Virus record (IMG/VR): IMGVR_UViG_3300028888_000057
Strand: one strand, 5' to 3'
Source of the DNA: a virus
Taxonomy: Duplodnaviria > Caudoviricetes
DNA length: 64,000 bases
Shown: positions 17,588-55,251 of the stretch, in pieces
Numbering within the stretch: position 1 is the first letter of the stretch
How the letters are laid out: every line of letters starts with the position of its first letter
The notes under the pieces: model-generated
Databases searched by the model: none
What the model saw: only the letters and a program-made list of their open reading frames with translations
Told to the model about the DNA's origin: nothing
Position numbers and translations under genes: made by a program

Positions 17588-20500
17588 TTAAAATGTATAA
17601 CTCGCAAGATTTAATCCTTCTTTACGAAGCTGTTTCGTAAACTCTTGACCAACTCTTCTTGCGACATCTTCGAAATCAGCATCATCCTTCATCTCTGCTC
17701 CGTTAATCGTAATGTTGATATCTCCGATGGTTTGATTGCTTGTGTTTATCTTATCAAGATTTGGAACTCTAAACGGTTCGATATTGACGTAGTTTAAAGC
17801 ATCAGTAAGAGCTTTAATGTTGGCGGTGTCATAAGCACTAAGGAATGCTTCGGGTTTGGACATGGATCCATCAACCCATGCAAGTCCTGTATAATCAACT
17901 AAGCCACCTTCTGCATTTGGGCCTGTAATATGTTTATTTGTTAGAAGCTTTTCTTGATTTTGTTTATTGGCTTCAGCTGCTTTTGCGCCGAGATCTGATA
18001 TGCCCTCAAAGAAGCTACCTAAAACATTTCCAACAGCATTGCTTAAATCATTAAAAGGTTTAGAAATATCGATATTTAAAGGCGGTACTCCAGTTGCAAC
18101 ATTTGATCCACCGACACCCGCAGATGTAGAAGTATGAGTTGTTGCGCTATATGATGATCCATACTCTTTTTCAACAATCTTTTGTGCTTCCGTTTTTGAC
18201 GACGCTTGAACGGAATAACTTGTCTTAAACCCGTTTTTATCATAAACATCATATGTAGATTTGCTAGCTTGTTGTTTCTGTTGCGTTCCCGTATTGGCAG
18301 ATGGAGCAGGTTGTTCAGGCGCTACTGGTCCTTCGCTCTTCGGAACAACGTCTCCGGTTCCGGCGTAATCGCTTGGATTTGTAGGAGCAGGAGTTGGTTC
18401 AGTTGTAGGTTGATCAGGCTGAGTATCGTCAGGTTTGGTATCCTCTTCTTCACCTTTTTCTTTGCCATCGTTTTTATGATCATCGAATGAAGTGAAGCTT
18501 GGATTGTAGCCGCTGCCGTTGTTGTACCAAGAAAAATCAGGATCCCAACCTAAAGCTTCAAGAATTGCTTCTTCTGAATTTTGAGGAGTAAAGTCTTCGT
18601 GAATATCTGGTGTATAATTAATTGCCTGAAGCGCAACACTAACAGCGCTGGCAGCATTAGTCCAGCCATCTTGCCATTGACTTGCCAGCTGAAGTTGTCC
18701 AGTAACACTGGCATTCGCATAATCCAAACTATTCTCATACATGAATTTCATAAAGCTGTCTTGACTTGAAAGTATCTCATTAATCTCATCCCAATAAGTC
18801 TCGACAATACCCTTCATTGCCATCCATGTTTCTTTCCAGCCTTCTTCAAGCTGTTTCTTTCTTTCATCAAGGCTGTTCTGATAATCAATATCATTCTGCT
18901 GCAACCATAAAACGATATCGGAATAACTTCTGCTTAATACTTCTTTGACTTCGGCTGCAAAATTGTTAGCATCAAGAAGCATTTCCTGCAGATTCTCTCC
19001 GTGAATCTGGACGTATTCGTTGATGGCATTAATTTCATCTTCGATACGTTCAGTTGCAGCTTCTGCTTGCTGGCTTGCTTCGTCCCATCTGATATCCTGC
19101 CTCAGTTCATCGATCTTACGGGTAAGCTCTTTAGATTCCTTGCTTCTTGTTGGATCAGCAGAAATAAGAGCTAATTGCCGCTGATAATCATTAAGCTCGC
19201 TGTATTTATTTTCCGCATTCATCATCTGCCTGCGGTAATTCAGCCGCTCATTAATCAGTTGCTTTTCTTTTTCAAGAGCGTCTTTCTTTCGATCAAGCGT
19301 TTCTTTTTCCAGATCCCATTCGTCTTGATATCTGCGTTTGATAACATTGAGGATAATATTCTGCATTTCGACTGTGTTATTTAACATGTCTCTTTGCTTT
19401 TTCTTATTATCTTCAATGACCTTTAAAACCATCTGTTCAAGTTCAAGACGAGTTTTACGAATTGCTTGCTCGTTCTGTCGCAGAAGCTTGTTATTCTTTT
19501 CAATCGCATTATTGTTCTGTAAAAGAGCTTCTTCCTTCTTCTTGATTGCATCTGATAATCTATAGTAATCTTTTTCACTCAGGTTGATGTTTTCAAGCTC
19601 TTCTCTCAAGAGAGTAAGCTCTTCTTCCATAGCTGTAGTATTCTCTTTGCGATAATCAATCTCTTTCTGCAGCATGATGCCATAGTTGGTAAGCTCGCCG
19701 TTAGTTTGATACCTAGTCTGCTCATACTGCATAAGCGTAATGTTATGAGTACGATTACCTTCGTGACGATTAATTTCGTCAAGCAATCTGTCAACTTTAA
19801 TTCCTTCGAGTTCTCTGTCGAAGTTTTCAAGCTCGACTCTCGCAGAAGAAATAGACTCTTCAAGAGACAATACTTTCTGACGCAGATTATCCCATGCGCC
19901 AGAGCCATAAGGCACTGATCCCATTTCAGCTTTCAGTTGTGCTGCTTGTGCCGTCATATCTGCAACAGAAGAAGTTAACTCTTCACGACGCTTTTCGGCC
20001 ATGACAAAGTATGCATCCCAGTTGCCTTGATTCTGATAAATCTGTCCTTGATCTTTAATCAGCTTTTGAATATGACTGCTTAAATCGTTAATTCTATCAA
20101 TGCCTTCAAGGATTTCATCAACGCGATCTTCCATGATATCCATTTCAGCATTGGCGATATTAGCTTCAAGCTCAGTAATCTTGCCTTCAATTTCTTGAAC
20201 CAACTGAAGTTGTTTATAATACTCTTCAGTTTCTTTTACCATAGCTTTAAGCTTTTGAACTTCGATCGCTAACAGGCTTTTCTGAACGGTAATCATTTTA
20301 CGCCAATTTGCGATCTGTCTTTGCATCATATCCCGATACGCACCGTGATTACCAGCCCGCTTATACGCGTTGGCCATAAGCGCGTAACCGTTGTTCTGAT
20401 GCTCCTCGGTCATCGTCTGACGCTGTAAGCTCTCTCTTGTATCATTCTGTTCTTTCTCAAGCTTATCTTTTCTGGCCTTATCTCTTTGAGTGAGCATGTT

Positions 20501-23500
20501 ATCGTTCTGTTCAAGAAGTGAGTTAATCTCTTGAGTAGTATTTAAAGCATTCTGAGTTTGACCTTTGGAATTATAATAATCTCTCAAAGACTCCAACTGA
20601 GTAACATGTTTATTGTTACGTTCTTCAATCTCTTTATAAATATTTTCCTGTTCTTCGAAGAGCTTATTATACGATTCGGTATCTTCATTAAGATCGGCTC
20701 TCTCCATTTGAGAACTGATCATGTTTAATCTGTGAGTATACGGAATCGCTTCATTCTGCTGATACTGTCTTTGAACGTCTAATCTTGTAGCATCTAGCGT
20801 TATTCTATCGTTGACACTCTTGGCAATCTTTTCTGTTAAACTATCTCTTTCTCCAACAAGATCTCTATATCTGTCCGATTCTCCGTTACGCAGATATTCA
20901 TCTTCCATAGCAGAGACGATTTCAGCCCTCCGTCTCCTGTCTTCGGATTCAATATCGTTTATGCCAGTAAGCTGCTTATCAATCTCACCCAGCGCAGCTT
21001 CTGGATCGTTCACATTCATATAGAACGTATAATCGATCTCAGACATAGTTTGCTTATGTTGCAACAGCGTAGAGTTGTACTCATACAGTTGTTTCTGTTG
21101 AGCATCCATCTTGGCATAGAGAGCATCTACGGCTTCAGCTACTCCAGCAAAAGCTTCCTGCGCAGCCCAAAGTGATTCTGTCAATTTGTTCCAGTCATCA
21201 GATCCTTCTTTGGTACTTCTGCGCATGTTCTCAATCTCTTGGATATTCTTTTGATACTGATCTGCTAATCTTTGTTGGACTTGAATTTGCTGATTGACAT
21301 TATCACGATACGCCGCATCATCATTATAACGATCATAATTCTTTTCTTGAATCTCAAGCATCTTTTGATCGTGTTGGATAGCAGATACATCGAACTTTTG
21401 TTTTTCAAGGAGTTTGTCAGCTGCGGACTTGCCGCCGCCGCCTCCACCACCGCCACGACCATGATACTTTCCGTTTGCATTTTTAGAGATTAATGCCTTT
21501 AAGTTGATCTTTTCTTTTCCTTCTTCTTGTACGAAAGTTAAAGAAGCAAGATCTCCAGCATATGCTTCCAGGCGTGCAATTGCTTCTTCAACAGCTGCAC
21601 GAGCAGTATCATCAAGCGCATCTAGATTCAACGTTCCGTCTGGATTAACAGTGATGTTGCTTAAGTCATAATTTAAAGATAAGTCGTCGACCATGCTGTC
21701 CCAGATTGCTTGGAAGTCATCTGTAGCAGCTTCGTTAACAGCGTCTTCAGCGCCATCTAACAACTCAGCCAGTCGATCCTTAGAAAGCTGTTTAATCTCA
21801 TCGGAACTTATTTCCGGGAACAGGCTATCGATAAACCCAAGTGTTTTAGTATCTAATTGTTTACCTGATTTGCCTTGAGCTTTGGATATTGCAGTCATTT
21901 GATCTTGGAAACCTTCAATGTTCTTACGAATCATTTCGGTTCCTTCAGATGCATCTTTGCCGCCCTTCTTTATTTTAGAAAGAGCCGACGCAAGATTTGC
22001 AGAACCTTTACTGAACTGCGTAACATCTTTCAGTTTATCTTCGTTGACCTGCTCGTTGTATTTTCTTAAAGCTTTCTCAGCTGTATTGGCAGAAACACCC
22101 TCAGATTTAAGAATGTTTGCGAGCTCATCAGAATGATCAAGTGAATTAAAAGCATTTATTTCAGCCGCGTACTGCTCTTGATTCTGCATCCAGTCACGAT
22201 AAGTATCAATCATATTCTGACCGGACATGTTACCGCCGAACAGACTGTTCATCGTGGCCCGTTGAGTTTCAGGTGATGCTTTTCTTCCATACAGAGCGTT
22301 ATAATATGCATCATTAATCATATCTTCTGTAATGGCAGAACCTTCTTGTCCGAAGGAGTTTACCATATACAGAAGACCGTTATCTATCGAACCCCAGTCG
22401 ACATTCTTGTTTTGCTGAAGCGCAGAAACACGTTCACTAAAGGACGCTTCTCCACCTTCACCCCACAGCGTATTGTAAACTTCTGACATTGCAGCGCCGC
22501 GTTTACGTGTAGACTCAAGCGAAGAACTCGCAATATCCGATAATGATTTATACGTATTGTCGCTATGAACACCATTTTTTGCTTCGTTGATCGCATTAAG
22601 GAACGGTTCAATAAGCTCACGTAAATCTTCAGGCACTTGATCTAAAGACGAAATGATATCGTCTAAAGACATAGTATCAAAATCAAGAGAAGTTAATAAC
22701 TCTTCAGGAAGAAGTTCGGTTGCAAGTTTCTGATAGAACTCTTTGACTTTATCGTTAATGGCAGTTTGCAGTTCGCCTTCCTGACCGTTCTGAAGCATTT
22801 CATCTACTTGTTCATCAGACAGTCCGAGAAGAGAAGAGATGTATCCACGGTTCTCAGCCGTGTTTCCTCCTTCTAATCCGTATTGTGCTTGTTGCAAAGC
22901 ACGCATCGTATCACTATAACCGCTAATTAAACCTAACTGTTCCGCAAAGGAACCGTTAGTGAAGATATCCCGAGCCGAGACAATCTGCTGGGCGTTTTCG
23001 CGAACATAACGAGATGCGCTCATGTTGAGCTGTTCGGTTAACTGTTGACGGTCAGCTTCACGTTCATTTTGTGAAGCTTCGAGATCGGCAAGTTCTTTCG
23101 CTCTTCGCATTTCAGCAGAACCGTATACGGCAGTTCCACCAGCAGATACAGCTTCTCTGTTTCGTTCAACCATCCGTCTGAATTCAGTACCGTAAGTACT
23201 CATTGACTGAGCGGCCGTATCATACAGGTTCTTATCTTCAAACTGATCTCTGCTAAAACCATTCAAGATTCTGCGTTGAGCTTGTGCTATATCAGTCTGT
23301 GAATAATGCTGTTGAGCATTTAAGAACGGATTTACCTGATCGATATTTGCACCTTTTCCGGTATACGTATATTTTCCTTGCGTCATATCCCAGAAAAGCT
23401 GCGTCATCTTATCGTTAATCTTTCCGCTGCTTTGACCGACAACATCACCGTTTGAGAGAACATTGAATCCATATCGATCCATGAACTTAACGGCGTCTTC

Positions 23501-26500
23501 GTAAGAATAAAGCGCATCGGTTATTTCGTATCCATTTTGCTTAGCCCAATCAGCAGCCAGTTCAACTTGTCCTAATCTTGCAAGTTCGTTTAACGTCCCA
23601 GCAAAAGCTTCTCTATCATTCTCAGCCATTAATTCCGCACGTCGTAATGATCCAGCTCTATCTTTTTGAATTTCGATATCGCTAATACCATATGCACGCA
23701 TAGCAGCATTTTGCTCTTCGTACGTTCCGTTTTCAAGCATGAGAGCCCGTTGCTGATTTTCGTGCATCTCAGATCCGAACTGTAGCTGAGTCTTGATACT
23801 TACATTTCCGTTTTTCTGTAAATCTTCAAGAAGTTGAGTAGTGCCTTGAACAACTTTTCCGGCTTCTTCAAGCTCTGAAATACCAGAAATATTAAGCTTA
23901 ATCTGAATATTGCGATCAAGATTTATACCTTCTTGTTCTTCGGCCCGTTGTTCAGGTTTCATTTGCAGAAGACTAATAATTTCTGGATATTTACTTTGAA
24001 TAGCTGACCATTCGTCAGTAGTCCAGCCTTCTTCGGTCATTACTGTTTGTGCTTCGGCCAAAGATTGGAAGTTTCTACCATAAAGATTACGAGCTAGATC
24101 GGTAGCTTCTTTATTTGTTATTGTACGGCCAGTGCCGACTTTAATTCCTTTTTCGGCTAATGTTCGTGCAACATAATCTTGCAAATCGGCATCTGTTGAA
24201 AGCGTTCTATTTCGTGCAGCTTCAACAATTCTTTGTGTTTCCTGTTCTCCGAAGAAATTTTGAAACACTTTAAAAAGCTCGGAATAGTTGCCGTTTTCTT
24301 TAGTAAAATCTTCAACAAAATTTGGATTGCCTTGAAGAGCATTAAACATCAACGAAGAGATTGCCTTAGAAGTGTCTTCTCCGTTTAACATTGCAGCTGC
24401 AATACTTTGATAATCGCTCCACCTCACACCACTACGAATCTGACGATGCGAAGCTTGCTCCAACTCGTACAATAAAGGATTGTCTCTCTGAACGTTGCTT
24501 AGTTCCGCGCCTTCAGCAAGAAGATCGTAAATATCGAATAAAGATTGCTCGGTATTTGCTTCTAATACTCTATTTAAATATCTGTTTCTAGCTTCTGTTT
24601 TGGCTAATGCTGGCTGCCGTTCTTGTGTTACAGTTTGAGTTGATTTCTGTGCTGTTGAAGGATAAACAGGAGTTCCATTATTTTTTATTTTCGTTAATGC
24701 AATATTATTATCTCTCGCATATTTTTCTGCGTCTTCTTGATTCCAGAATGTTTGATTGACTCCTTGTATTGTATAAGGAGCATCTGTCTCAGAATAAGAT
24801 TTAATTTCATTTGCTGCATTAGATAAATTATCGTAATCGAATGTTTGAGCAAACCAATTTGAAAGAGCGTATTCGTTAAATTCTCCTTCGTCATTAAGCC
24901 AACTGTAACTTTGACCATTTCTTGTGTATTCGCGTTTAAAGTTTCCATTTTCATCATAAAGTTGACTCGTCAGCAAGGTTCGAAGACCAGACTCAATAAC
25001 TTCAACGGAAGTGTTACCTAAAGAAGCAACCTGTTCTAATGTGCCACTTGTTTTATAACTGTTAATCGCATCATCAATAACTTGTTGGATATTCTGCTTC
25101 CTTTGCTCTTGATTTCTTGCTTCCGTAAAATTACCAGAGAAAAATTGATCCAGAACGTATTCATAAGCGTTCGATATTCTATCAAGTACACCTTCGTTTT
25201 CTAAATCCAACGACTGCGTTCCGTCGAGCCACTGCAATATATCTTCATATCTAGAATCGCTTAAGAATGTTTTTAAACTGTTGCGATATTTTCCTTGGTC
25301 ACTTGACCACAATCGTTTGAAAACATTGGCGCGTCTTTTTCGAGCAAGATTTTCATCCTCACCCTCTACTAATCCTAACCAGCCACCATCTCTAAAGTTT
25401 ATAGACATGGCCTGTTCTTTTGTCAGGTCATCACTAAAATTAACACCTTGCCCACGAATAAATTGTTCATTACTTAACGCGCGCTTAAGGCCGATTTCAA
25501 ATTCACTTGCTCGGCTTTCTGTAATATTTTCACCTTCGAGAGTTCTGTAATTCTCAGGAAGATAATCTCTTACATATTGATTTGCATTATCAACATTTTC
25601 TTTATCTGCATCTTTTTTAAACTTTTGAGCAGTATCTTCTGCTGATTTAACGGCTTCTTCCCAACCAGAAAGTTTTTCAATAGCACTCTGCACTGAATCA
25701 GAAACATTAGGAAATACTTTTGCCAAATCTAATAAAGCAGCCCGGAGATTATTTCCCGCCGTAGCTTTCGCAGCTGCATCAGTTTTTTCATTAAGCGAAT
25801 CGTATACTTTTCCTAATTTCTTAACTTCATCAATTGCATCCTGCTGGGTTTTTACATCGTTATCATTATAAGACTTTGTTGTCCCTAATGTTTCAAGAGC
25901 TTTCGCGTTCTTCTTTTCAAATTTTTCGCGTTCTGTTTCTGTTGATCCGAGTCCGGCAAGTAAATTTGTTCCGTATGAAGCAACCGCAAATCCACCAAGT
26001 GCGGCTAATATCGTAGCTATTCCAGCCAATGGTCCAAGTTTAACAGAGTTCAACGCAACTGCAATCGCTGCAATACCAGCTGCAATACCACCTAAGATAG
26101 GAGCAGCATTTGATCCATTTGCTATATTTTGCAAGAACCCTGACAACAAATCGAGAACATTTGTAATGTCTCCTCCGTTAACAAAGCTCTCTACGACAGC
26201 GTCCCAAGAACTTCTAACGGTATCCATCGATGCCGCAAGGCTCTGCATGGCAATCTCATACTTACTTTGAGTTACGCCTTCAGATCCTTCTGCCAGCCCC
26301 AAGTACTTCTCCAATGTAGCACCGTTATCTTCAGACATACCTTCCATCAATGTAGAGAAGATGTTTGTCTGACGAGTACCAGCCATTGCGTTGGTAACAA
26401 TGGACTTCTGAGCGTCGCTTAAGTTCTTCCAGACTTTGGACAAGTCTAACATTACATCGTAAGCAGATCTCATCTGTCCGACTGTTTTGTTATCCCAGAG

Positions 26501-29500
26501 ATCAACACCTACAGCAGCAAGTGCAGCTTCAGCGTCGGAAGCAGTCGTCTTCTCACCGTTTTGATCGGCTGTGTAGCCTGTAAGGCTCAGCCTTCTCATG
26601 CGGGAGAACACTGTCTGTAAGGCTGTACCGACCTGGGTACCGCTTAACTGTGTATCGGAAGTACCGATAGTAAGTAAGGCTGTTAACTCTTCGTAGGATA
26701 CGCCTGCAACTTTGGCAGAAGCAGCAGCTTTCTGCATACCTTTACCAATCTCAGCCGCAGTTGTAGCAGCAGAGTCACCTAACGCTACCAGCGCGTCCAT
26801 CGCTGCTTCGGCAGAAGGAACTAAGTCATTCTGTAATGCAGTAGTGATAATCTTGGTAGCTTCAGCAACATTAAGCTTAGTGACGGTAGCAAACTTGATA
26901 ATAGATTCTGTACGGTCAGCTACTTCTGTGTCGGATAAGCCTTGACGATAAAGTGCAGCTTCGGTAGTAGCTACGTTAGAAACAGAGGTTCTGAGACCAA
27001 TAGCACGATTAATCGTTCCGGTACGCACGTCACGCATTTCGCCGTTGGACTTCATGGTGATGGCTTGGATCTCGTTCATGGAAGCGTCAAATTCTTTTAC
27101 AAAGCGCTTTGTTTCTTGAAGAGCTTTTTGGAAGAGTTGACGACCAAGACGTTGGGCAACCATACCGATTGCTTGACCTAATTCTCCGAACACAGCCTGA
27201 GCTGTTTGTCCGCCGCTGGTCAGTTGATCAAGTTGACTCTTTGCTTCTTGAGAAGCTTTATCTAAGTTCTTTAGCTGTTGAGTGGCTTGATCATATCCAA
27301 ACTGCGCAGCATTAATCTTTTCCTGATCTCCAGATTTTTTTGCAATCTCCAGTTGTTTAGTGTAGTAATCCTGATTACGCTGAGCATCTTCTTTTTGACG
27401 ATCGATAGAGTAGACTTGCTCTCTTGCATTCTCTCTGCGTTGTTCAACTCCGTAAAGAGCTTGAGCAATACGGGAGCGGCTGTAACGCATTTGTTGTTGC
27501 CGATTCGCTTGACTGAAAGCACGTTGCATATTATGAACGCGAATATCGCCTTGCATTGCAGAAGACGTCAAAGCATTATCTCTTTGTAGTTGACGTAAAA
27601 TTTGATTATTATCATATTGCTCTGTAATGCGCTGCTCTAAGATTGGATCAGTATTAGCAAGTAATAATGCTTCTTGTTCAGAATACCGTTTCGCTCTACG
27701 AAGCTTTTCTGCTCTAGCGTTTCTTGAAGCTTTAGCTTGAGCCAAACGATATTGTATTTCTTCGTCTCTCGTCATCGAGCGACCTTGCAATTGAGCATCA
27801 AGCTGATATCCTTCTGCGTCAAGTTGAAGATTCCGTTGCTCTCTATTAAAACTTACTTGTTCTCTTGCTCGAGCTTTTATTCGTCTATTGGAATATTCTT
27901 GTTCGAAAGCATTTCGATCAAAATCAGGGTCATTTATGTGTTCTGCTTTATAACGATCTCTCTGTAATTTCATTTGATCATACATTTGATCAAATTCTTC
28001 TTTTGCCGAAAAATCCTCACCACTAAATAATGTATCTAGATTGCGCTTAGAAACACGTGTTTGAGCATTTTTCATCACTTCTCTGAAATATTCATCTTCT
28101 CTATTTCGCTTTGAATATTGATCCCATAAATCCTTATTATCAAGTATTTTATCATATTCGTTCCGAAGAGGATCGTCCAGTCCCAAAACGTCTCTTTGAG
28201 CAGTAATCTGATCTTTTAATTGTTGGACTTTTATATCAGCTCTATCAGTCGAAGATAAGTTGCCGTTTGTTAGTTCCCGTTGATATTTGGCTAACTGATC
28301 AAAACGTTGACGGTTCAATCTTGCTAGCATATCATCAGCTTGAGAATTAATTTTATCAACTTTAGTTTCTTCTTCTTTTGACATAATCGAAGAAGCGTCT
28401 CTTGTATAATCAGGCATTAATCCAGTACGCTGAAATTCTTCATATAAAATCGCGTCTGATTCTTCTTGTGTTAACTTATTTCCAGCTACAGCAACTCTTC
28501 TTTGTTTTCTCCAATTTTCTACAATCTCTTCTGGCGTTTGAGTTATTAATCCTAAGCGTTGTTGAAGATCGCGCTGAACAATTGCTTCTGGCTTATCACT
28601 TTCGAGGAATGAATCAGCTTGCTGTATTCTGTCTTGTCTATCTTTGATTATTTTTGCATAAGCTTCAGCTTCATCTTCTGTAATGTCCGGATTTACTATT
28701 TTTTCACTTGCTTCCTTAATTTCATTTGACCAGTTATCTATCTTTTGCTGAATTTGCTTTCTTTTATCGGCAAATGCCGCTTCAATCATTTCCGCCGGAT
28801 CTTGTATTTCACCGATGAGACTTGACCAGTCTGCATCTTGAGCTTCTTTGTCAGATTTTAAATAACGGTCAAGTGCCGGTTTTATCTCTTCCATTGCCAC
28901 TTCTTCAGCGTCAATCGAATCTAAAAATCTCTTTTTTTGTTCTCTTGCGACTTCAGCAAGTTTAGTATTATCTGAATCAACATTGAATAACTCAGCTTGT
29001 TCTTCAGGCGATAAATATGCATCTGCAAGTTCTTTGTATTCACCAGTTGGACCCATTTTTGTAATATAGCCACGGTAAATACTTTCTCCGCCAACTTCCA
29101 TCTTTTTAATGAAGTCTCGACTGCTTTTAGCAGCCAACAATCTACTAGTAACACCAGACAGTGTTTTCATAGTGTTCGATCTTTGGACTCCATTTAGACT
29201 ATTTGTGATATCTTCTCCCGCTTTATCCCAGTCTGTCACAGCGGCTTCAGAACCCAATTTATCAATTTGAGAAAGCAATCTTAACTTTTGTCTTATATCG
29301 TCTGTTAATTTTTCTCTTACTGGAGAATCAGAATCGTATCCATAAGCAACAGCATTGACTACTTCTTCTGGAAGAACTTCCATAAGTTTATTTCGGTAAT
29401 TTTCGAATCGATTAAACTTTCTTTCCGGTAGATCCATTTCACGGAAAATGCTGCTTCGAATCTGATTCATAGTTTCAAGATCGCTTGGATATCTAGACAA

Positions 29501-32500
29501 GAAAAACTCTCTGTCTTTTTGAGACATATCTCTATGATTTTCCTGAGCTCTAGACGTATATTCTTCGGCTTGACGCTTTTCTCTAGACTCTCTAGCTATC
29601 GCAGCTGCATAAGCGCGGCCTTCGTCATCTAATGTTTTTGCGTCAATCATTTTATGCTCCATTGCATATTGAACATCTTTTTCGACTTCTGCAAAAACGG
29701 ACTCATTATCCGCTCTTCTAGCTAAGATATGCGCGTCTTCTCGAGGATTATATCCAATTACACCACCAAGATCAGATACATATTTTTTAGCTACATCGTC
29801 CCAGTGCCCAACTCCAGCAAATGCCTTATATGAAGTTGCATTTGTTTCAGGATTCGGAGAATGCAAATTTTCATAATATTCCTGAGCATATTTGTCCATG
29901 ATGGAATTGTAGAAAATAGACTGAATAAGAGATTCAGCTGCTCCTTCTGCGCTAGACTTATAGTCTATTGTATATAGCAATCCATCATTTTTATTTCGAA
30001 GCATTAAGTCCGGTTTCGCGTGTGTCCGTTTTGAAGTGTCATATCCGACAATCTGGCCGTCTTTATCTCTTATTGGTATTTGAATGTTGAAATCTTTTTG
30101 CATCGGGATTGCGCCGAGGCTTTCTCCGTTTGGTCCATAACTATAAAAATCTCCTTCAACATTCACAGGACGTTCAGTGTCGAAGCCAAGATTATTTAAA
30201 GACTTAATAAACTTAGCTGATGATGAAACTGGATTATTTTTAGTCGGAAGTATTTTATTTAATTTTTGAACAGCTGTGTTACTTCTATCGCCTTTTACTT
30301 CAAATAAAGGCTTTTCACCGTCTTTGCTGATTCTCGATATGTTTATCCCGTATTGGTTTAATTTATCATTATATCCGCCAATATAAGCATCAGTATAAAA
30401 ATCATCTATAGATCTTCCATTTAAAGTTCCATCGGCCGCTGCTTTAAAATATTGCTCGAACGCCCCATGCATCAATAAACCTTGAAGGGTATGCTCGTTT
30501 TCAAACGGTTGATTTCGTAGTTCTGCTTGAGCCTGTAAGATTTGATCAGCAAGATTATTAAAGCTTTTTATTGTCGTTTCGGTGTTTCTTGCACCAGATG
30601 GAGTAAACTCAGTTGTATTTAGTCTATATTCTTTATCTGGCATCCAGTGCTTAAATGATGTCCAATTCATTTGAATATGATCATCATCCCAAACGCCGTT
30701 TTTTAATCTCTCTTCCTCTGCTGCTTTCTGAGCTTCTTCTTCTGCTTTCGCGTCATATGAAGTAATCTTCGCTTGTTCTTTTATTGCATCTCGGACCGCT
30801 GAATCAACAGCTTTGTCACTCTGCCTTTTGCTTTGATGCTTCACAAGACGATCAATTAAACCAAACCTGTCTCTATTTTCTTCAACGTTGTTTCCATTCG
30901 CTATTTCTGTTAAAATACGATCTCTTTCAGTTTGAAGGTTTTTAACAGTAAATCCTTCTCCGCTTTCAAGTTCGTGAATGCGACGAACAAATCTATTGTA
31001 TTTTTTATACTCTTCTTCGTCTGTTGAAACATTTCGACCGCTTAAACTGGCCTCCCAACGTTGTGCAATATCGTAACCATTTACGATATCTTCATCTGTC
31101 ATAGCTCGACCAGTCATCATTTCAGAGAACTTTTTAGCGTACCATCTTGTGGCTTGAGCTTCAGATGACGCGGATTTTCCGTATTTGCGTTCAATTAAAC
31201 GGTTTACATTATTGTTAAAATCGGAGAAATCTGTTGAACCGTTTTCATAATCTATTGCTCGCAAAGCAACAGCAAGTGCTCCTTGAGGGCCTGAAATAGT
31301 CGCGAACTTAACTTTAAAAAGTTGATCAAGAGCTTCTTCTTCTTTTTCGAGATATGGATCTCGACCATCTTCTTCTGCTAACTCATTAAGTTTTGTCACA
31401 AAACGAAGATAGCTTCCGCCATTACTAAGAAAAGATTCAGTATCTTTATCGAGTTTGAGTTCTTGACCTTTCGTTCTCATATCGGAAGAAGCAAAATCAT
31501 AAGCTTTCATTCCTTTATAAGCAAGCTTCCACTTTTGAGGATCTGAGTCGGGAAGATCCATGGCGTCTCGAATTATTTTCGAAGCAGCGCCCATTGCTCT
31601 CGTTGATTTCTGATAATTCTCAAGAGCTTTAATCCTACTTTCAAGCACATCTCCAGTTTTTGCTTTTGGTTCTTCTATATTACCTTTATAGCTTTCTTCT
31701 TTTTCTATTTCTGCTTGAGCTTCTTGTATTTTTTTGCTTATATAATCCATATGTGCATACGAGGCATCTTCAAGTCCGGCATACATACGGATTGTATCTC
31801 CATCGAAGTCTCCAGTGTTCATTTGATATGCTTGTTGAGTAGTTAAATATATTGCATTATCAAGCTGCTCTTGTGTAATCCCGAATTTTCCTAAAGCTTT
31901 AGAAGCCATGTTGTAAGCAACAATGCGCTGATCTGGCGCATCCGGATTTCTATTAAAAGCAGCACGTTTATTAAATGAAAGATTTTTGCCGCCTGTAGCA
32001 ATTCGACCTGTATTGTTTAATTCAGCCGTTGCTATATTTTGTAATTCTTTAGGTAAATCATCTACTGTTTTTCCGGCGGCTTCTAGTAATGGCTCTAACC
32101 ATGCCATAGGAGTAACAGCTGCTACAAGATCTTTCGCTTTGACTTCGTCCGGAAGAGCTATATAACCAGATCGTTCTTTTTCTTTAAGGCCTCTAATTTG
32201 ACTTTGAATATACGATTCAGCTTCTTTTGAGTAAGCGAAATTAGCATCTTCGTCTAAAAGTCTAGAGTAATACGGGCTTCTTCTTAACGCTTCAATTCTT
32301 CCTTCTGCGCTTTGAAGATGGAAACGTCTTCTCGCAAATTCTTCTTTTGACTTTGCTTGTGTTTTAGCGTCAATCCCTATTGCCGCAGCAGTCTGCTGAG
32401 ACATAATCGTCGGATCCGAAGACAAATCGTATGCTGTTCGCATAACCATCCAATGCGGAGTAGCACGATCATGAAATGCACCTTGTTCCTCAGGAAGCAA

Positions 32501-34936
32501 CGTAACAATCCCGCTTGATGAATTCACACGACCTTCTTTTCGCGCTTGTTCATATCCGGCTTCACCATATTCTCCAACGTATGATTTTTTATCTAAAAAT
32601 TTAAACCCTTCAAATTGCTTCACGGATGAATCTGTAAGAATTGCTCCGATGTCGTCCGCATTAGCTTTAAAGAATTTTTGACGTCTTAACTCGCGTTTCT
32701 GATCGTCTGTCAAACTACGTCCTTTGCCCATAAGATCAAGAACATCTTGTTTGTCCGCAGTTGCACTTGGAGCCCAATACATTAATTTGCCATTTTCGTT
32801 TGAAACCATCCAATTGCCATTCGCAGATTCTCCAACTTCATCTGGATTAAATGTTCCCATAATAGATCCAAACATATAATCAAGATCAACAGGATTCATC
32901 ACGTATTTAGCAAAGCCCATCGCTGACCGCATTTGCACTGGACCATTTTTAAATAATTTGTTACTTCCTAACGCAGCTCCGTCTATGCGGTTCGGTTTAC
33001 CTTCATATTTTTTTCCTAAAGCATCATACAATGCTTCCATGTTCATAATACGAGTCTGGAAAGGTTTTTCAAATTCACCAAAAACCTCTTCGTAAGGCAT
33101 AGAAGATGACGCAGATTTAGAAAAGTTATTTATTTGTTTTATAAGTTTATCTTCTGGTATATCTCTCAAACCATTAGCATTTAGACCGCCAAAAAAAGAT
33201 GGGATATGACGTTCTTCAGCCCATGTGTTAATTTGTTTTTTAAGATCATTTTCAATCAGCGAAATCGAATCTTCATTTTGCATTAAATATGAATATTTTC
33301 TTCCGCCATATTCATAATCTTTACTTACAAGATTTTTTAATTCTGGGAGTCGACTTTCATTGATTGTTCCATCTTTTAAAAAATATGGCTTTGTTGATAA
33401 CGTCAAGATTGGCGGCGTTTTATAGATCGGCTTACCTGTACTCTCATCGCGACCAAATCCGAACGTGCCATTACCAACTCCGAAGCTCATATTGTTTCCG
33501 TTGGAATCTTTCCAGATGTCGGAAATAAGTTTCATTATTGGACTGTTAGTTCTTACAATAAATTGATCGTCTTCTGACTGATCAAATAAACCTGTTTTCT
33601 TTTTCCAGTTTGGATCACTTTCAACAAGACGACCCGTAGAAGAATCAACCCTTGTACGAGGAATAATAAATTGAGTCGGCGTACCAACAGTTTTTATTTT
33701 CGAACCTGAACTTCTATATTCAATTGGAGATCTTAAATAATCATTTACATTAACATTAGAATCGGCAACGATAGAACCGTCTCGCGAAAGAAGATCTAAT
33801 ACACCAATAGCAGACCTAACGCGTCCGCTCATGCGTCGATCTTGACGAGTATTTTCGCTGAAATCACGAATGTCTGAATCGTAAAAAGCATATCCTCTTC
33901 TTGAATCAGCGATTTGCCTAAGCGACAATCCTGCAAGTTTTCCAGCTTGAGCTCTAGTCAAACTTTTAGCCCAACGAAGCTCACCGCCTTCTCGTCTTGC
34001 AACGCCAGCCGCCTCTAAAATATCATAAACGTCAGAAGCATCGTCACTGTGTTCGATATAATCTTGAAGTTCTTTATATAATCCGGTTTTAACATTTATT
34101 CTTTGCTTTGGACTTTTTAAAGACTGTCTCCAGTTTTGAATATCTTGTTCTTCTGCTGACCCATTATTATAGTAAGCTCTTCTGAATTGTTCTGGGATAA
34201 TATCATGTGCATAAGTATGCCGTCTACCTGCTTTAAAAGGCGCTTCTGCGAGAAGAGATTGTCCAATTGATCGAGAGGCAGATGTATTATTTGACAGCAA
34301 CATTAATCGTAAATTGTTTTTTATTTGCTGATCCGTAAATTCTTGTCCGTTTCCTGCTGCTTTAAAACTATTTTTTATCGCGTTGTCGTTTGCTAAAACA
34401 GAAACATACCGATCTAAAGTAGGAGTTTGACCTTTGAATTGCTTCGCATTTAACTCAGCAATCCTGTTATTAACAGCGCGATTCATGATCGTAGGCGCGT
34501 TTTGTTTGAATGCGTGTTTACTCCATCCTAAATCCTGATCGTATGCTTCGTTGATCGCATTGATTCTTGCCGCAAATTCACGCAATCCAAGACTTTTAGT
34601 TATTAACGATGTTTCATCTAAACCTTTTCCGTAGTCCCTTTTCATTTGATTAATTAATCCAGAAACAGTTCTGGTGACATCCATAAATGGAGCAACCAAG
34701 GACTGAGAAAAGTTCTTGCCAAATTTAGTAATTTGCGATTGAAGCGTTGTTAATCCGTTTGAATACAAATTTAAGCTTTCTAAAAAATATTGAACAGACT
34801 CATTTTGGGGATCGTTAAATAGATCGATGGGGCTGCTCTTAACATTATTTCTTAATTCTTCTACTGCCTGACTGGCATCGTCAATCCCTTGTTTATTTAA
34901 TGTTGTTAATATCTCAACTGAAACAGTATTTGACAT
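17588..34936 (-). CDS. Giant tape-measure protein fused to N-terminal RNA polymerase and PD-(D/E)XK nuclease domains
   Basis: 5782 aa, RBS AAGGAGG, between tail chaperones and Dit. Tape core at ~aa 2610-2910 (FDASMNEIQ…ATTAAEIGKGM…GTALQTVFSRM…AGTRQTN); C-terminal GGLVDYTGLAWVDGS.SKPEAFL; NTGDFDGD (D1043); PDL…IDYK at aa ~1642-1660. Confidence 0.9.
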   Translation of the reverse strand: MSNTVSVEILTTLNKQGIDDASQAVEELRNNVKSSPIDLFNDPQNESVQYFLESLNLYSNGLTTLQSQITKFGKNFSQSLVAPFMDVTRTVSGLINQMKRDYGKGLDETSLITKSLGLREFAARINAINEAYDQDLGWSKHAFKQNAPTIMNRAVNNRIAELNAKQFKGQTPTLDRYVSVLANDNAIKNSFKAAGNGQEFTDQQIKNNLRLMLLSNNTSASRSIGQSLLAEAPFKAGRRHTYAHDIIPEQFRRAYYNNGSAEEQDIQNWRQSLKSPKQRINVKTGLYKELQDYIEHSDDASDVYDILEAAGVARREGGELRWAKSLTRAQAGKLAGLSLRQIADSRRGYAFYDSDIRDFSENTRQDRRMSGRVRSAIGVLDLLSRDGSIVADSNVNVNDYLRSPIEYRSSGSKIKTVGTPTQFIIPRTRVDSSTGRLVESDPNWKKKTGLFDQSEDDQFIVRTNSPIMKLISDIWKDSNGNNMSFGVGNGTFGFGRDESTGKPIYKTPPILTLSTKPYFLKDGTINESRLPELKNLVSKDYEYGGRKYSYLMQNEDSISLIENDLKKQINTWAEERHIPSFFGGLNANGLRDIPEDKLIKQINNFSKSASSSMPYEEVFGEFEKPFQTRIMNMEALYDALGKKYEGKPNRIDGAALGSNKLFKNGPVQMRSAMGFAKYVMNPVDLDYMFGSIMGTFNPDEVGESANGNWMVSNENGKLMYWAPSATADKQDVLDLMGKGRSLTDDQKRELRRQKFFKANADDIGAILTDSSVKQFEGFKFLDKKSYVGEYGEAGYEQARKEGRVNSSSGIVTLLPEEQGAFHDRATPHWMVMRTAYDLSSDPTIMSQQTAAAIGIDAKTQAKSKEEFARRRFHLQSAEGRIEALRRSPYYSRLLDEDANFAYSKEAESYIQSQIRGLKEKERSGYIALPDEVKAKDLVAAVTPMAWLEPLLEAAGKTVDDLPKELQNIATAELNNTGRIATGGKNLSFNKRAAFNRNPDAPDQRIVAYNMASKALGKFGITQEQLDNAIYLTTQQAYQMNTGDFDGDTIRMYAGLEDASYAHMDYISKKIQEAQAEIEKEESYKGNIEEPKAKTGDVLESRIKALENYQKSTRAMGAASKIIRDAMDLPDSDPQKWKLAYKGMKAYDFASSDMRTKGQELKLDKDTESFLSNGGSYLRFVTKLNELAEEDGRDPYLEKEEEALDQLFKVKFATISGPQGALAVALRAIDYENGSTDFSDFNNNVNRLIERKYGKSASSEAQATRWYAKKFSEMMTGRAMTDEDIVNGYDIAQRWEASLSGRNVSTDEEEYKKYNRFVRRIHELESGEGFTVKNLQTERDRILTEIANGNNVEENRDRFGLIDRLVKHQSKRQSDKAVDSAVRDAIKEQAKITSYDAKAEEEAQKAAEEERLKNGVWDDDHIQMNWTSFKHWMPDKEYRLNTTEFTPSGARNTETTIKSFNNLADQILQAQAELRNQPFENEHTLQGLLMHGAFEQYFKAAADGTLNGRSIDDFYTDAYIGGYNDKLNQYGINISRISKDGEKPLFEVKGDRSNTAVQKLNKILPTKNNPVSSSAKFIKSLNNLGFDTERPVNVEGDFYSYGPNGESLGAIPMQKDFNIQIPIRDKDGQIVGYDTSKRTHAKPDLMLRNKNDGLLYTIDYKSSAEGAAESLIQSIFYNSIMDKYAQEYYENLHSPNPETNATSYKAFAGVGHWDDVAKKYVSDLGGVIGYNPREDAHILARRADNESVFAEVEKDVQYAMEHKMIDAKTLDDEGRAYAAAIARESREKRQAEEYTSRAQENHRDMSQKDREFFLSRYPSDLETMNQIRSSIFREMDLPERKFNRFENYRNKLMEVLPEEVVNAVAYGYDSDSPVREKLTDDIRQKLRLLSQIDKLGSEAAVTDWDKAGEDITNSLNGVQRSNTMKTLSGVTSRLLAAKSSRDFIKKMEVGGESIYRGYITKMGPTGEYKELADAYLSPEEQAELFNVDSDNTKLAEVAREQKKRFLDSIDAEEVAMEEIKPALDRYLKSDKEAQDADWSSLIGEIQDPAEMIEAAFADKRKQIQQKIDNWSNEIKEASEKIVNPDITEDEAEAYAKIIKDRQDRIQQADSFLESDKPEAIVQRDLQQRLGLITQTPEEIVENWRKQRRVAVAGNKLTQEESDAILYEEFQRTGLMPDYTRDASSIMSKEEETKVDKINSQADDMLARLNRQRFDQLAKYQRELTNGNLSSTDRADIKVQQLKDQITAQRDVLGLDDPLRNEYDKILDNKDLWDQYSKRNREDEYFREVMKNAQTRVSKRNLDTLFSGEDFSAKEEFDQMYDQMKLQRDRYKAEHINDPDFDRNAFEQEYSNRRIKARAREQVSFNREQRNLQLDAEGYQLDAQLQGRSMTRDEEIQYRLAQAKASRNARAEKLRRAKRYSEQEALLLANTDPILEQRITEQYDNNQILRQLQRDNALTSSAMQGDIRVHNMQRAFSQANRQQQMRYSRSRIAQALYGVEQRRENAREQVYSIDRQKEDAQRNQDYYTKQLEIAKKSGDQEKINAAQFGYDQATQQLKNLDKASQEAKSQLDQLTSGGQTAQAVFGELGQAIGMVAQRLGRQLFQKALQETKRFVKEFDASMNEIQAITMKSNGEMRDVRTGTINRAIGLRTSVSNVATTEAALYRQGLSDTEVADRTESIIKFATVTKLNVAEATKIITTALQNDLVPSAEAAMDALVALGDSAATTAAEIGKGMQKAAASAKVAGVSYEELTALLTIGTSDTQLSGTQVGTALQTVFSRMRRLSLTGYTADQNGEKTTASDAEAALAAVGVDLWDNKTVGQMRSAYDVMLDLSKVWKNLSDAQKSIVTNAMAGTRQTNIFSTLMEGMSEDNGATLEKYLGLAEGSEGVTQSKYEIAMQSLAASMDTVRSSWDAVVESFVNGGDITNVLDLLSGFLQNIANGSNAAPILGGIAAGIAAIAVALNSVKLGPLAGIATILAALGGFAVASYGTNLLAGLGSTETEREKFEKKNAKALETLGTTKSYNDNDVKTQQDAIDEVKKLGKVYDSLNEKTDAAAKATAGNNLRAALLDLAKVFPNVSDSVQSAIEKLSGWEEAVKSAEDTAQKFKKDADKENVDNANQYVRDYLPENYRTLEGENITESRASEFEIGLKRALSNEQFIRGQGVNFSDDLTKEQAMSINFRDGGWLGLVEGEDENLARKRRANVFKRLWSSDQGKYRNSLKTFLSDSRYEDILQWLDGTQSLDLENEGVLDRISNAYEYVLDQFFSGNFTEARNQEQRKQNIQQVIDDAINSYKTSGTLEQVASLGNTSVEVIESGLRTLLTSQLYDENGNFKREYTRNGQSYSWLNDEGEFNEYALSNWFAQTFDYDNLSNAANEIKSYSETDAPYTIQGVNQTFWNQEDAEKYARDNNIALTKIKNNGTPVYPSTAQKSTQTVTQERQPALAKTEARNRYLNRVLEANTEQSLFDIYDLLAEGAELSNVQRDNPLLYELEQASHRQIRSGVRWSDYQSIAAAMLNGEDTSKAISSLMFNALQGNPNFVEDFTKENGNYSELFKVFQNFFGEQETQRIVEAARNRTLSTDADLQDYVARTLAEKGIKVGTGRTITNKEATDLARNLYGRNFQSLAEAQTVMTEEGWTTDEWSAIQSKYPEIISLLQMKPEQRAEEQEGINLDRNIQIKLNISGISELEEAGKVVQGTTQLLEDLQKNGNVSIKTQLQFGSEMHENQQRALMLENGTYEEQNAAMRAYGISDIEIQKDRAGSLRRAELMAENDREAFAGTLNELARLGQVELAADWAKQNGYEITDALYSYEDAVKFMDRYGFNVLSNGDVVGQSSGKINDKMTQLFWDMTQGKYTYTGKGANIDQVNPFLNAQQHYSQTDIAQAQRRILNGFSRDQFEDKNLYDTAAQSMSTYGTEFRRMVERNREAVSAGGTAVYGSAEMRRAKELADLEASQNEREADRQQLTEQLNMSASRYVRENAQQIVSARDIFTNGSFAEQLGLISGYSDTMRALQQAQYGLEGGNTAENRGYISSLLGLSDEQVDEMLQNGQEGELQTAINDKVKEFYQKLATELLPEELLTSLDFDTMSLDDIISSLDQVPEDLRELIEPFLNAINEAKNGVHSDNTYKSLSDIASSSLESTRKRGAAMSEVYNTLWGEGGEASFSERVSALQQNKNVDWGSIDNGLLYMVNSFGQEGSAITEDMINDAYYNALYGRKASPETQRATMNSLFGGNMSGQNMIDTYRDWMQNQEQYAAEINAFNSLDHSDELANILKSEGVSANTAEKALRKYNEQVNEDKLKDVTQFSKGSANLASALSKIKKGGKDASEGTEMIRKNIEGFQDQMTAISKAQGKSGKQLDTKTLGFIDSLFPEISSDEIKQLSKDRLAELLDGAEDAVNEAATDDFQAIWDSMVDDLSLNYDLSNITVNPDGTLNLDALDDTARAAVEEAIARLEAYAGDLASLTFVQEEGKEKINLKALISKNANGKYHGRGGGGGGGGKSAADKLLEKQKFDVSAIQHDQKMLEIQEKNYDRYNDDAAYRDNVNQQIQVQQRLADQYQKNIQEIENMRRSTKEGSDDWNKLTESLWAAQEAFAGVAEAVDALYAKMDAQQKQLYEYNSTLLQHKQTMSEIDYTFYMNVNDPEAALGEIDKQLTGINDIESEDRRRRAEIVSAMEDEYLRNGESDRYRDLVGERDSLTEKIAKSVNDRITLDATRLDVQRQYQQNEAIPYTHRLNMISSQMERADLNEDTESYNKLFEEQENIYKEIEERNNKHVTQLESLRDYYNSKGQTQNALNTTQEINSLLEQNDNMLTQRDKARKDKLEKEQNDTRESLQRQTMTEEHQNNGYALMANAYKRAGNHGAYRDMMQRQIANWRKMITVQKSLLAIEVQKLKAMVKETEEYYKQLQLVQEIEGKITELEANIANAEMDIMEDRVDEILEGIDRINDLSSHIQKLIKDQGQIYQNQGNWDAYFVMAEKRREELTSSVADMTAQAAQLKAEMGSVPYGSGAWDNLRQKVLSLEESISSARVELENFDRELEGIKVDRLLDEINRHEGNRTHNITLMQYEQTRYQTNGELTNYGIMLQKEIDYRKENTTAMEEELTLLREELENINLSEKDYYRLSDAIKKKEEALLQNNNAIEKNNKLLRQNEQAIRKTRLELEQMVLKVIEDNKKKQRDMLNNTVEMQNIILNVIKRRYQDEWDLEKETLDRKKDALEKEKQLINERLNYRRQMMNAENKYSELNDYQRQLALISADPTRSKESKELTRKIDELRQDIRWDEASQQAEAATERIEDEINAINEYVQIHGENLQEMLLDANNFAAEVKEVLSRSYSDIVLWLQQNDIDYQNSLDERKKQLEEGWKETWMAMKGIVETYWDEINEILSSQDSFMKFMYENSLDYANASVTGQLQLASQWQDGWTNAASAVSVALQAINYTPDIHEDFTPQNSEEAILEALGWDPDFSWYNNGSGYNPSFTSFDDHKNDGKEKGEEEDTKPDDTQPDQPTTEPTPAPTNPSDYAGTGDVVPKSEGPVAPEQPAPSANTGTQQKQQASKSTYDVYDKNGFKTSYSVQASSKTEAQKIVEKEYGSSYSATTHTSTSAGVGGSNVATGVPPLNIDISKPFNDLSNAVGNVLGSFFEGISDLGAKAAEANKQNQEKLLTNKHITGPNAEGGLVDYTGLAWVDGSMSKPEAFLSAYDTANIKALTDALNYVNIEPFRVPNLDKINTSNQTIGDINITINGAEMKDDADFEDVARRVGQEFTKQLRKEGLNLASYTF

Positions 34937-34956
34937 ACCTACTTAACCTCCTTTTA

Positions 34957-34985
34957 TTGACAAATTAAGTATTTCATGTTATAAA
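34957..34985 (+). promoter_or_regulatory. Sigma-A-type promoter
   Basis: TTGACA (34957-62), 17-nt spacer, TATAAA (34980-85) with extended TG; ~40 nt upstream of the ATG at 35027. Confidence 0.7.
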
Positions 34986-35026
34986 AAACGAGCAAACCCC
35001 TGCAATTGAAAAGGAGGAAGACTCGC

Positions 35027-35371
35027 ATGGAAACAATATTAATCAATGAAGTTACTTGTCCTGCCTGCGGAGGGCATTTGTTTGACAAAGAATATATTGA
35101 AAAAAAGTTGTATATATGCAGGCAATCTGTTGATATGTACTTTAGATGTAATCACATACTTGCTTTCTGTAAACAATGCAACAAACTTCAAGACGAAAAA
35201 GAATTCGGAAAGCATGGCGATGTCTGGGAATGCAAAGAATGTGGCGCAATTTGTTGGCCATTAACTGACGAAAAAAGAAGAAGAGAAGAAATTCTTTCTA
35301 AATATGAATCTCGGTCTAAAAAGTTCAACAGCGTTGCCAACGAAATAGAATCTTTACTAAAAAATGAATAA
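35027..35371 (+). CDS. Small multi-CxxC zinc-finger protein
   Basis: RBS AAGGAGG, ATG 35027; CPAC, CKQC, CKEC pairs. Confidence 0.75.
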   Translation: METILINEVTCPACGGHLFDKEYIEKKLYICRQSVDMYFRCNHILAFCKQCNKLQDEKEFGKHGDVWECKECGAICWPLTDEKRRREEILSKYESRSKKFNSVANEIESLLKNE

Positions 35372-35457
35372 TGACATTGTAAAACATCAGAGATTTCACG
35401 ATTTAATTTTCCGTTAATTCAACTTCAATTAATGATTCAAATAAGGAGTGATTAAGA

Positions 35458-35697
35458 ATGGAGCGCATAAGTAACTCGGTGCCCTGCCGCAAATGCGGAG
35501 CCAACGAACATATTCCAAGATATGCACAAAGAGATTTCTTTATATGTAAGAAATGTTCCCAGCCGATCGGTTACAGATGCTCCGGATGTGAAGAGTTTTT
35601 TGAGAATGCCGACAACCTATATTATGACGGCAGTATATACAGATGTAAAATATGTAACACTATACAGTGGGGTTATTCTGATTGGAAGCTACAATAA
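35458..35697 (+). CDS. Small zinc-ribbon protein (4 CxxC)
   Basis: RBS AAGGAG; CRKC, CKKC, CSGC, CKIC. Confidence 0.75.
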   Translation: MERISNSVPCRKCGANEHIPRYAQRDFFICKKCSQPIGYRCSGCEEFFENADNLYYDGSIYRCKICNTIQWGYSDWKLQ

Positions 35698-44553: not shown

Positions 44554-44580
44554 ATTTTCCTTCAATCCTTTCAAAAATTA

Positions 44581-54976: not shown

Positions 54977-55251
54977 AGACAAAAGGTAGGTATAAAAGCC
55001 TGCTTTTTTATTTCAACATACGTGAACAGAAGAGCTCTGAGTAATCAGAGTTCTTTTTTATATATCAACATGCATGAAGTACTCGCTCATGCATTACAAC
55101 CGCAAAATCCCAGCGGTATGAGTGTGGCAATTGGGTGCCGTGCTATACGAAACATAGCTCAAGGCCGAGCAGGCGCATCTTAGCTCAAAGATGCAAATGT
55201 TTATCAATTCTATTTTGTTGTCTCTTAAGTGAGACAGAAAGGAAGGAAACC

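Follow-up and report, generated by a model that had tools for sequence, protein, structure and literature searches.

Does the giant tape measure protein of an uncultured long-tailed phage carry an RNA polymerase (RNAP) of its own, and would this enzyme enter the cell with it? The question is raised by a stretch of 64,000 nucleotides (one strand; hereafter, the window) from the virus record IMGVR_UViG_3300028888_000057 (Duplodnaviria; Caudoviricetes), which belongs to an uncultured phage. A single open reading frame (ORF) on the minus strand encodes a protein of 5,782 amino acids (P0001), in which an RNAP domain, a nuclease domain and a tape measure core follow one another in that order, ahead of a long helical remainder. 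A preliminary description of the window had proposed that an RNAP is fused to the N-terminus of a tape measure protein. The fusion is indeed contained in one ORF, in the position of a tape measure gene, and it is kept in relatives. Our analysis leads us to consider it probable, taking the whole chain of steps together and arguing in part by analogy, that the first ~1,200 residues constitute a catalytically intact, predicted single-chain two-barrel RNAP that would be delivered through the tail and transcribe early genes.

The N-terminal domain of the giant tape measure protein

The product of the giant ORF is a tape measure protein, because it contains a PF10145 core, matches 12 PHROG tape-measure families and includes a hydrophobic stretch. 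The core lies inside the interval of about residues 2610-2910 to which the preliminary description had assigned it (Table 1). The hydrophobic stretch consists of two overlapping Gly/Ala-rich segments, and is likely the membrane-inserting part of the tape measure; membrane domains are usual in such proteins, among them gp96 of the Thermus phage P23-45 (PMC10770324). The gene is also in the position expected of a tape measure gene, since those for the Dit-type distal tail protein and the tail-tip protein lie directly downstream, with head and tail genes on the other side. Translation would start from a strong ribosome-binding site, whose Shine-Dalgarno sequence, AAAGGAGG, ends 9 nucleotides 5' of the ATG. 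Given a tape measure of 5,782 residues, the tail of the phage is probably very long. The distal part of the protein contains a run of eight glycines (GRGGGGGGGGKS, residues 4495-4502).

Upstream of the tape core, the motifs IDGAALG, QMRSAMGFAKYV, ILTDSSVKQF, FNRNP and NTGDFDGD, which the preliminary description had read as those of a two-barrel polymerase, are all found where it had located them. The two-barrel superfamily is defined by eight invariant residues (Ruprich-Robert and Thuriaux, PMC2919709), which in QDE-1 are D709, R738, K743, R962, P964, D1007, D1009 and D1011 (PMC2919709). In the giant protein, D652, R670, K677, R996, P998 and D1043/1045/1047 match this list in order and with similar spacing; for example, the distance from the R-x-P motif to the Asp triad is 47 residues here and 45 in QDE-1 (R962 to D1007). 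The pairing of D652/R670/K677 with D709/R738/K743 of QDE-1 was made by order and spacing, and not by residue-level superposition. The assignment of two lysines to the basic site of the barrels, made in the preliminary description, has to be amended: the conserved pair is R670 and K677, as are R738 and K743 in QDE-1, and K773 is also invariant.

An exhaustive phmmer search with residues 1-1200 against 1.84 billion representative proteins returned 19 relatives only. Those of full length comprise 4,352-6,256 residues, and most are giant tape measures; the full-length relatives that were checked have the same N-terminus, the PF10145 core and the same gene order. An alignment of 10 N-termini, 21-47% identical to the query, served to assess conservation. 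All eight residues of the superfamily list are invariant in 10 of the 10 sequences, while D652, G653, Q668, R670, K677, K773, R996 and P998 form a set that is invariant or nearly so. The longest invariant block of this alignment is N1040-T1048 (NTGDFDGDT), and nowhere in the first 1,450 residues is conservation higher than in the metal loop. Likewise, each of the 11 relatives that cover the site has D[FY]DGD (DFDGD in all but one, DYDGD in that one), i.e., the motif singled out in the preliminary description is conserved among homologous tape measures. Because the eight residues are invariant at 21-47% identity and match the two-barrel list, we regard the catalytic signature of the domain as intact.

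Two trivial origins of these motifs were considered and rejected. The pattern D.D.D occurs only twice in the whole protein, and conservation and fold argue against a chance DxDxD occurrence. An assembly chimera of a polymerase gene and a tape measure gene was discarded because the same continuous ORF is retained in at least seven independent lineages (contigs). A search with a degenerate DNA pattern for NTGDFDGDT found two IMG/VR loci (L004 and L005) and one match in an Acidimicrobiales metagenome-assembled genome. L004 is a relative that runs from DFDGD into the tape core; the Acidimicrobiales match may be due to chance.

A structural model of residues 331-1200 was created with AlphaFold2 from a 14-row alignment (predicted local distance difference test, pLDDT, 75.3; predicted template-modelling score, pTM, 0.70). 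Foldseek comparison with the PDB shows that the matches at expectation values (E) of 0.001 or less, 22 of 22, are two-barrel RNAPs. The best is QDE-1 (E 6.6e-8), followed by matches that include RDR2 and the virion RNAP of the crAss-like phage phi14:2 (E 6.5e-4); P32 gp64, the AR9 enzyme and bacterial beta-prime are weaker matches, as is P23-45 gp96 (8h2n; E 0.38). In VIA-align superpositions, which extend over model residues 89-852 (residues 419-1182 of the protein), RDR2 reaches Z 14.0 (root-mean-square deviation 4.0, 492 residues), QDE-1 Z ~13 (~500 residues) and P32 gp64 Z 9.9 (401 residues), and the first two span both barrels. Isolated domains of the double-psi beta-barrel (DPBB) type match residues 932-1057 with Z ~8, a stretch that holds R996-x-P998 and the Asp triad. 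The model thus bears out the two-DPBB fold that had been expected around residues 640-1060, in that it resembles QDE-1, RDR2, the phi14:2 enzyme and P32 gp64.

Among the predicted viral structures of BFVD, the top Foldseek matches are phage proteins annotated as 'RNA dependent RNA polymerase' (E 2.7e-12 and 8.9e-11), and P23-45 gp64 is found at E 7.7e-3. A language-model feature search, which we treat as a lead only, placed PF05183 RNA-dependent RNA polymerases (RdRPs) in 19 of the 30 nearest clusters. As judged from the model and these searches, the domain very probably folds as a two-barrel polymerase and keeps the active-site signature intact, and it appears to belong to the phage/QDE-1/RdRP-like branch of the superfamily.

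The BFVD search also matched the polymerase model to segment 1 of a 'Minor tail protein' from Siphoviridae sp. ctnpt50 (A0A8S5SD80, E 8.4e-4). That phage has, in addition, a free 'RNA-dependent RNA polymerase' (A0A8S5SEF1, E 8.9e-11). The minor tail protein may be another, unannotated tail-fused polymerase.

The nuclease domain, the second polymerase and the genomic setting

A second enzyme-like domain lies between the polymerase and the tape core. It contains the motifs LLMHGAFEQY, KPDL, IDYKS and QSIFY, and all giant relatives keep G-x-LMH-x-x-FE-x-Y, PD, (I/V)DYKS and QSxxY. No match to this domain was found in Pfam or among PDB sequences. A model of residues 1440-1730 (pLDDT 77) was therefore compared at the level of structure with 48,161 PDB representatives: RecB-family nucleases account for eight of the 10 best chains and occupy all of the first four ranks, with modest Z scores (7.8 to 5.0). 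The matches comprise Dna2 (Z 7.8, 153 residues), AddA (6.3), AdnA (6.0), the Cas4-like ACE1 (5.8) and RecB (5.0), and also MGME1. For a RecB/Cas4-type nuclease on a restriction-endonuclease-like fold, the motif evidence, taken from sequence, is strong, and the fold evidence, taken from the model, is moderate.

Three relatives lack a continuous giant ORF: a frame change disrupts it in L002 and L008, and a stop together with a frame change in L007. The breaks are located at ~9800-10300 in L002, ~6200-6800 in L007 and ~4650-5300 in L008, that is, ~400-600 residues past the polymerase domain and inside the nuclease domain. In L007 and L008 the break falls between nuclease motif I and motifs II/III, and the downstream ORF holds the PF10145 tape core; in L002 it falls just before the DYK motif. 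Three independent breaks within the same ~150-residue region are unlikely to be random errors; as to their nature, they could be real splits, programmed frameshifts, pseudogenes or errors.

The window also encodes a free-standing YonO-family RNAP (P0002) on the plus strand. This protein matches phrog_8308 with E 3.5e-17, a family on which SPbeta YonO itself scores 1220 bits. Its metal motif reads DGDVDGDE, with RFP upstream, and BLASTP aligns the DVDGD of this motif with the DNDGD of YonO (E 2e-6). Thus, the phage carries two two-barrel polymerases, like P23-45. Comparison of the tape-fused domain with P0002 by hhalign detected no similarity, and paralogy such as has been proposed for gp96 and gp64 is not evident here. 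A YonO-type gene was not found in the two IMG/VR records that bear the NTGDFDGDT pattern, which are fragments, 67% and 13% complete (G001 holds L004). A scan of repeats and promoters for a polymerase-specific promoter yielded terminator-like hairpins and weak 20-mers only.

The giant gene is part of a minus-strand siphophage morphogenesis module that comprises terminase, portal, connector, head and tail genes. The phage genome is ~149 kb long (149,320 bp), and its base composition, ~41% GC, is mesophilic. The preliminary description had regarded the head and tail architecture as SPbeta-like. Such a link is suggested by the YOMG_N match in the tail-tip protein, by YonB and YomU matches in relatives, and by the YonO-type second polymerase. 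It does not extend to close similarity, as the portal is ~22% identical to those of the nearest cultured Bacillus phages. From these comparisons, the virion module seems distantly SPbeta/Bacillus-phage-like.

Table 1. Positions of the features in the window (nucleotides counted from its first base) and, where given, in the giant protein P0001 (residues)
Feature	Position (nt)	Strand	Residues and remarks
Giant tape measure gene (P0001)	17588..34936	-	5,782 residues; single uninterrupted ORF and translation
Two-barrel (double-psi beta-barrel) RNAP domain, predicted	31391..33682	-	~419-1182; AlphaFold2 model and fold searches
First-barrel (beta-like) catalytic block	32900..32986	-	IDGAALG ... QMRSAMGFAKYV
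IDGAALG	32966-32986	-	651-657
QMRSAMGFAKYV		-	668-679
ILTDSSVKQF		-	766-775
FNRNP	31943..31951 (R996-N-P998)	-	994-998; R-x-P of second (beta-prime-like) barrel
NTGDFDGD metal-binding loop	31796..31819 (DFDGD, 31796-31810)	-	1040-1047; D1043, D1045, D1047
RecB/Cas4-type PD-(D/E)xK nuclease-like domain	29747..30529	-	~1470-1730
Tape measure core, PF10145 PhageMin_Tail	26378..26992	-	2649-2853; E 6.6e-29, 101.7 bits against a cut-off of 33.2
Two overlapping hydrophobic Gly/Ala-rich segments	25973..26113	-	2942-2988; Kyte-Doolittle mean >1.6 over 19 residues
Eight-glycine run	~21431-21454	-	4495-4502
Tail-tip protein (Tal)	10272-16301	-	2,009 residues; phrog_6211 minor tail; PF24049 YOMG_N; PF06605 Prophage_tail
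Dit-type distal tail protein	16317-17441	-	phrog_33, E 1.3e-16; PF05709 Sipho_tail
Stretch upstream of the tape measure gene	34937-35735		~800 nt
Bidirectional terminator-like hairpin	35692-35733		GGGGAGAGA...TCTCTCCCC
Related hairpins	44572-44613, 53659-53700		
GIY-YIG homing-endonuclease gene	38740-39408	-	
GIY-YIG homing-endonuclease gene	40326-40979	-	
Similar flanks of the GIY-YIG genes	38579-38621/40168-40210, 39206-39255/40804-40853		~1.6 kb apart
Major-head-like protein	44649-45653	-	
abiF RNA (Rfam match)	48058-48094	-	39.9 bits against a gathering threshold of 37
tRNA-Asn	48102-48177	-	
Portal	48318-49883	-	
Large terminase	49902-51548	-	
Free-standing YonO-family RNAP (P0002)	55135..58500	+	ORF opens with GTG at 55135; ATG at 55252 likelier start
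Five-tRNA cluster	62346-63181	+	Ala-TGC, Pro-AGG, Leu-TAA, Gln-CTG, Gln-TTG (ARAGORN)

Some further features of the window were recorded. The stretch upstream of the tape measure gene is free of minus-strand ORFs of at least 70 residues and opens with the bidirectional terminator-like hairpin, to which two hairpins elsewhere in the window are related. Two GIY-YIG homing-endonuclease genes lie in the head-tail block, and together with their similar flanks they look like a duplicated mobile unit. The match to the abiF RNA falls in the interval that separates the portal gene from the next one, and adjoins the tRNA-Asn gene. Rfam confirms three of the five tRNAs of the plus-strand cluster.

Tail delivery and its alternatives

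If the domain is a tail-delivered early polymerase, infection could proceed as follows. By analogy with gp96, the tape measure protein would line the tail lumen in an extended and metastable state, and infection would drive it out into the cell envelope. Its N-terminal polymerase would then refold where the entry channel faces the cytoplasm, and transcribe the phage genes that enter first, independently of the host polymerase; it may also help to pull in the ~149-kb genome. The RecB-type nuclease would be delivered by the same route. Transcription of later gene classes would pass to the free YonO-type polymerase, whose gene lies on the opposite strand.

Several points weigh against this reading. 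In its folded state, a domain of ~90 kDa would be too large for the lumen of a siphophage tail, and unfolding and refolding must therefore be assumed. Retention of the N-terminal part in the virion, RNA polymerisation and the kind of template are ascribed to the domain by analogy. The alignment beneath the fold model is shallow (14 sequences), its active-site residues are placed by order and spacing, and the closest solved folds, as identified with the model, are RNA-dependent enzymes. Judging by the broken frames in three relatives, a covalent link between polymerase and tape measure may not be present in every case. In addition, homology to known RNAP families went undetected at the level of sequence. 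Residues 1-1500 have no polymerase-family match in Pfam or PHROGs, and none to phrog_8308, the YonO family, at E <= 0.01. PF05183 matches neither the query nor any of 10 family members in Pfam, even at E <= 1. Searches of the N-terminus against all PDB sequences with phmmer and with a family-profile hmmsearch returned nothing, as did tblastn against 50,697 deposited phage genomes. When the family profile was aligned by hhalign with YonO and with P0002, the probabilities were 0.5-0.6% (YonO, 0.5%).

This last set of results is what one might expect of a decayed polymerase relic, devoid of catalysis and retained as a structural element of tail assembly or as a plug, as the family has no sequence similarity to characterised polymerases outside short motifs. 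A relic, however, would be expected to lose its catalytic residues, and here all eight are invariant at 21-47% identity, with the metal loop as the best conserved block. We therefore consider an inactive relic very unlikely. A different possibility is that the polymerase is made with the tape measure but released from it, by proteolysis or as a separate product, and acts in the producing cell as a late non-virion polymerase or a primase-like enzyme, never entering the virion. Tape measure proteins are often processed, and the interruption of the ORF after the polymerase domain in L002, L007 and L008 indicates that the parts can be separate polypeptides. Nevertheless, these breaks do not coincide with a domain boundary but lie inside the nuclease domain, and may be artefacts of assembly, while seven independent lineages keep one continuous ORF. 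Moreover, the phage already encodes a free polymerase, P0002, and an enzyme that is needed before late transcription would hardly be expected to have its gene in a late tail operon. On balance, release of the polymerase in the producing cell seems rather unlikely.

It is also conceivable that the domain does travel through the tail, but serves mainly as a DNA-import motor or as a primer or RNA synthase that copies RNA or single-stranded DNA, in the manner of QDE-1, rather than as a promoter-specific early transcriptase. The closest solved folds, those of QDE-1 and RDR2, belong to enzymes that copy single-stranded templates, and active pulling of DNA would presumably be useful to a phage with so long a genome and, probably, a very long tail. 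The choice of template, however, is not fixed by a fold match. Within the same broad clade, YonO transcribes DNA templates processively (PMC5467207), and gp96 transcribes pre-early genes from defined promoters (PMC10770324). We judge a function confined mainly to import or priming to be quite improbable. Our preferred interpretation thus remains that of a catalytically intact RNAP that would be delivered through the tail to transcribe early genes.

More tentatively, and with less confidence than in that interpretation, we suggest that the fusion of a polymerase with a tape measure arose at least twice, or else is very ancient. In mesophilic SPbeta-like phages, the QDE-1/RdRP-like RNAP and the RecB-type nuclease might then form a tail-delivered 'first-strike' module anchored at the entry pore. 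There, the polymerase would transcribe the incoming genome and perhaps also draw it into the cell, and the nuclease would attack DNA of the host or of competitors. If so, tail-delivered enzymes would be a general strategy of long-tailed phages, and not an oddity of Thermus phages.

Comparison with known systems

The precedent named in the preliminary description, P23-45 gp96, is real (PMC10770324). In this Thermus phage, the N-terminus of a 5,002-residue tape measure is a virion RNAP (Chaban et al. 2024, PMC10770324), with DFDGD at 779-783, an active fragment comprising 327-1124, and a known structure (PDB 8h2n; PMC10770324). The enzyme transcribes pre-early genes, including that of the second polymerase, gp64, and its authors propose that it acts at the tape-measure pore during DNA entry; they describe the association of polymerase and tape measure as 'previously unsuspected' (PMC10770324). 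Enzymes of the gp96 type are also found in the Thermus phages P74-26, G20c and TSP4. Full-text literature searches did not turn up a further paper on a polymerase fused to a tape measure, nor one for an SPbeta-like phage, in agreement with the expectation that such a case had not been described. The gp96 paper also surveys phages that have two polymerases; its list includes a few non-jumbo siphophages from metagenomes, whose enzymes are of the 'YonO', 'Cyano_RUMTOR_01356' or 'CAC1139' type, and it describes none of these as tape-fused (PMC10770324).

The likeness to gp96 is one of layout. Both proteins are giant tape measures (5,002 and 5,782 residues) with an N-terminal two-barrel RNAP, predicted in our case, after a leader of ~330-420 residues. 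The metal loop context Y-x-x-x-T-G-(x)-D-F-D-G-D-T is common to the two, as is a hydrophobic membrane segment in a later part of the chain, and each phage has a gene for a second polymerase that is free-standing. Nevertheless, as far as can be told from sequence, homology between the two proteins cannot be demonstrated: when the family profile is compared by hhalign with residues 1-1200 of gp96, only 26 columns, at the catalytic loop, are aligned (E 0.0037 in a single comparison, probability 8.9%), and BLASTP gives E 0.11. The fold match to 8h2n is likewise weak, in contrast to the Z scores of 13-14 for QDE-1 and RDR2. Here, a RecB-type nuclease follows the polymerase, and Pfam finds no metallopeptidase domain; as partner polymerase, this phage has a YonO-type enzyme and P23-45 one of the gp64 type; and the virion module appears distantly SPbeta/Bacillus-phage-like, with a mesophilic composition.

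YonO of SPbeta resembles the tape-fused domain in that it is a single-chain two-barrel RNAP of a Firmicutes-type siphophage, and R-x-P lies upstream of its DxDGD loop. It is, however, a free protein of 839 residues, which transcribes the late operon of SPbeta, and it is not described as a virion component (Forrest et al. 2017, PMC5467207); the tape-fused domain, for its part, matches neither phrog_8308 nor the profiles of YonO and P0002. Mutation of the Asp triad abolishes template-dependent nucleoside triphosphate polymerisation by both YonO (PMC5467207) and gp96 (PMC10770324), and the present family offers defined constructs for biochemistry, namely residues ~400-1200 and the Asp triad 1043/1045/1047.

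The best structural matches are QDE-1 and RDR2 (PF05183; PDB 2j7n and 7w82), over both barrels and ~490-510 residues, with the same eight active-site residues at similar spacing. Sequence identity to them is 8-13%, however, and the similarity to PF05183 is structural only. These are eukaryotic silencing enzymes, and their phage look-alikes are free proteins, rather than parts of tail proteins. The family described here enlarges the known range of minimal relatives of cellular RNA polymerases that consist of a single chain.

Polymerases that reside within very large virion proteins and are injected to start transcription are also represented by gp66 of the crAss-like phage phi14:2 (PDB 6vr4) and by the N4 virion RNAP (vRNAP). 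The former is a two-barrel enzyme, with a significant fold match to our model. Both phages are short-tailed and package these polymerase proteins in the head, and the N4 vRNAP is of an unrelated, T7-like class. Neither protein is a tape measure; the fused parts are named 'large proteins of unknown functions' (PMC10770324).

The only tape-measure-fused polymerase characterised so far, by experiment, is thus that of a thermophile's phage, P23-45, and the present case would be a second family, found in uncultured phages of ~150 kb, with no detectable sequence relation to gp96, a different best-matching fold and an extra nuclease. Should our interpretation hold, host-independent early transcription delivered through a long tail would be a recurrent solution, and tape measures would be able to carry enzymes into the cell. 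The principle itself has already been published for gp96. What the window adds is a distinct and undescribed variant of it, in which a polymerase of another lineage, as predicted, is joined by a nuclease and accompanied by a YonO-type partner in a mesophilic, distantly SPbeta-like phage.

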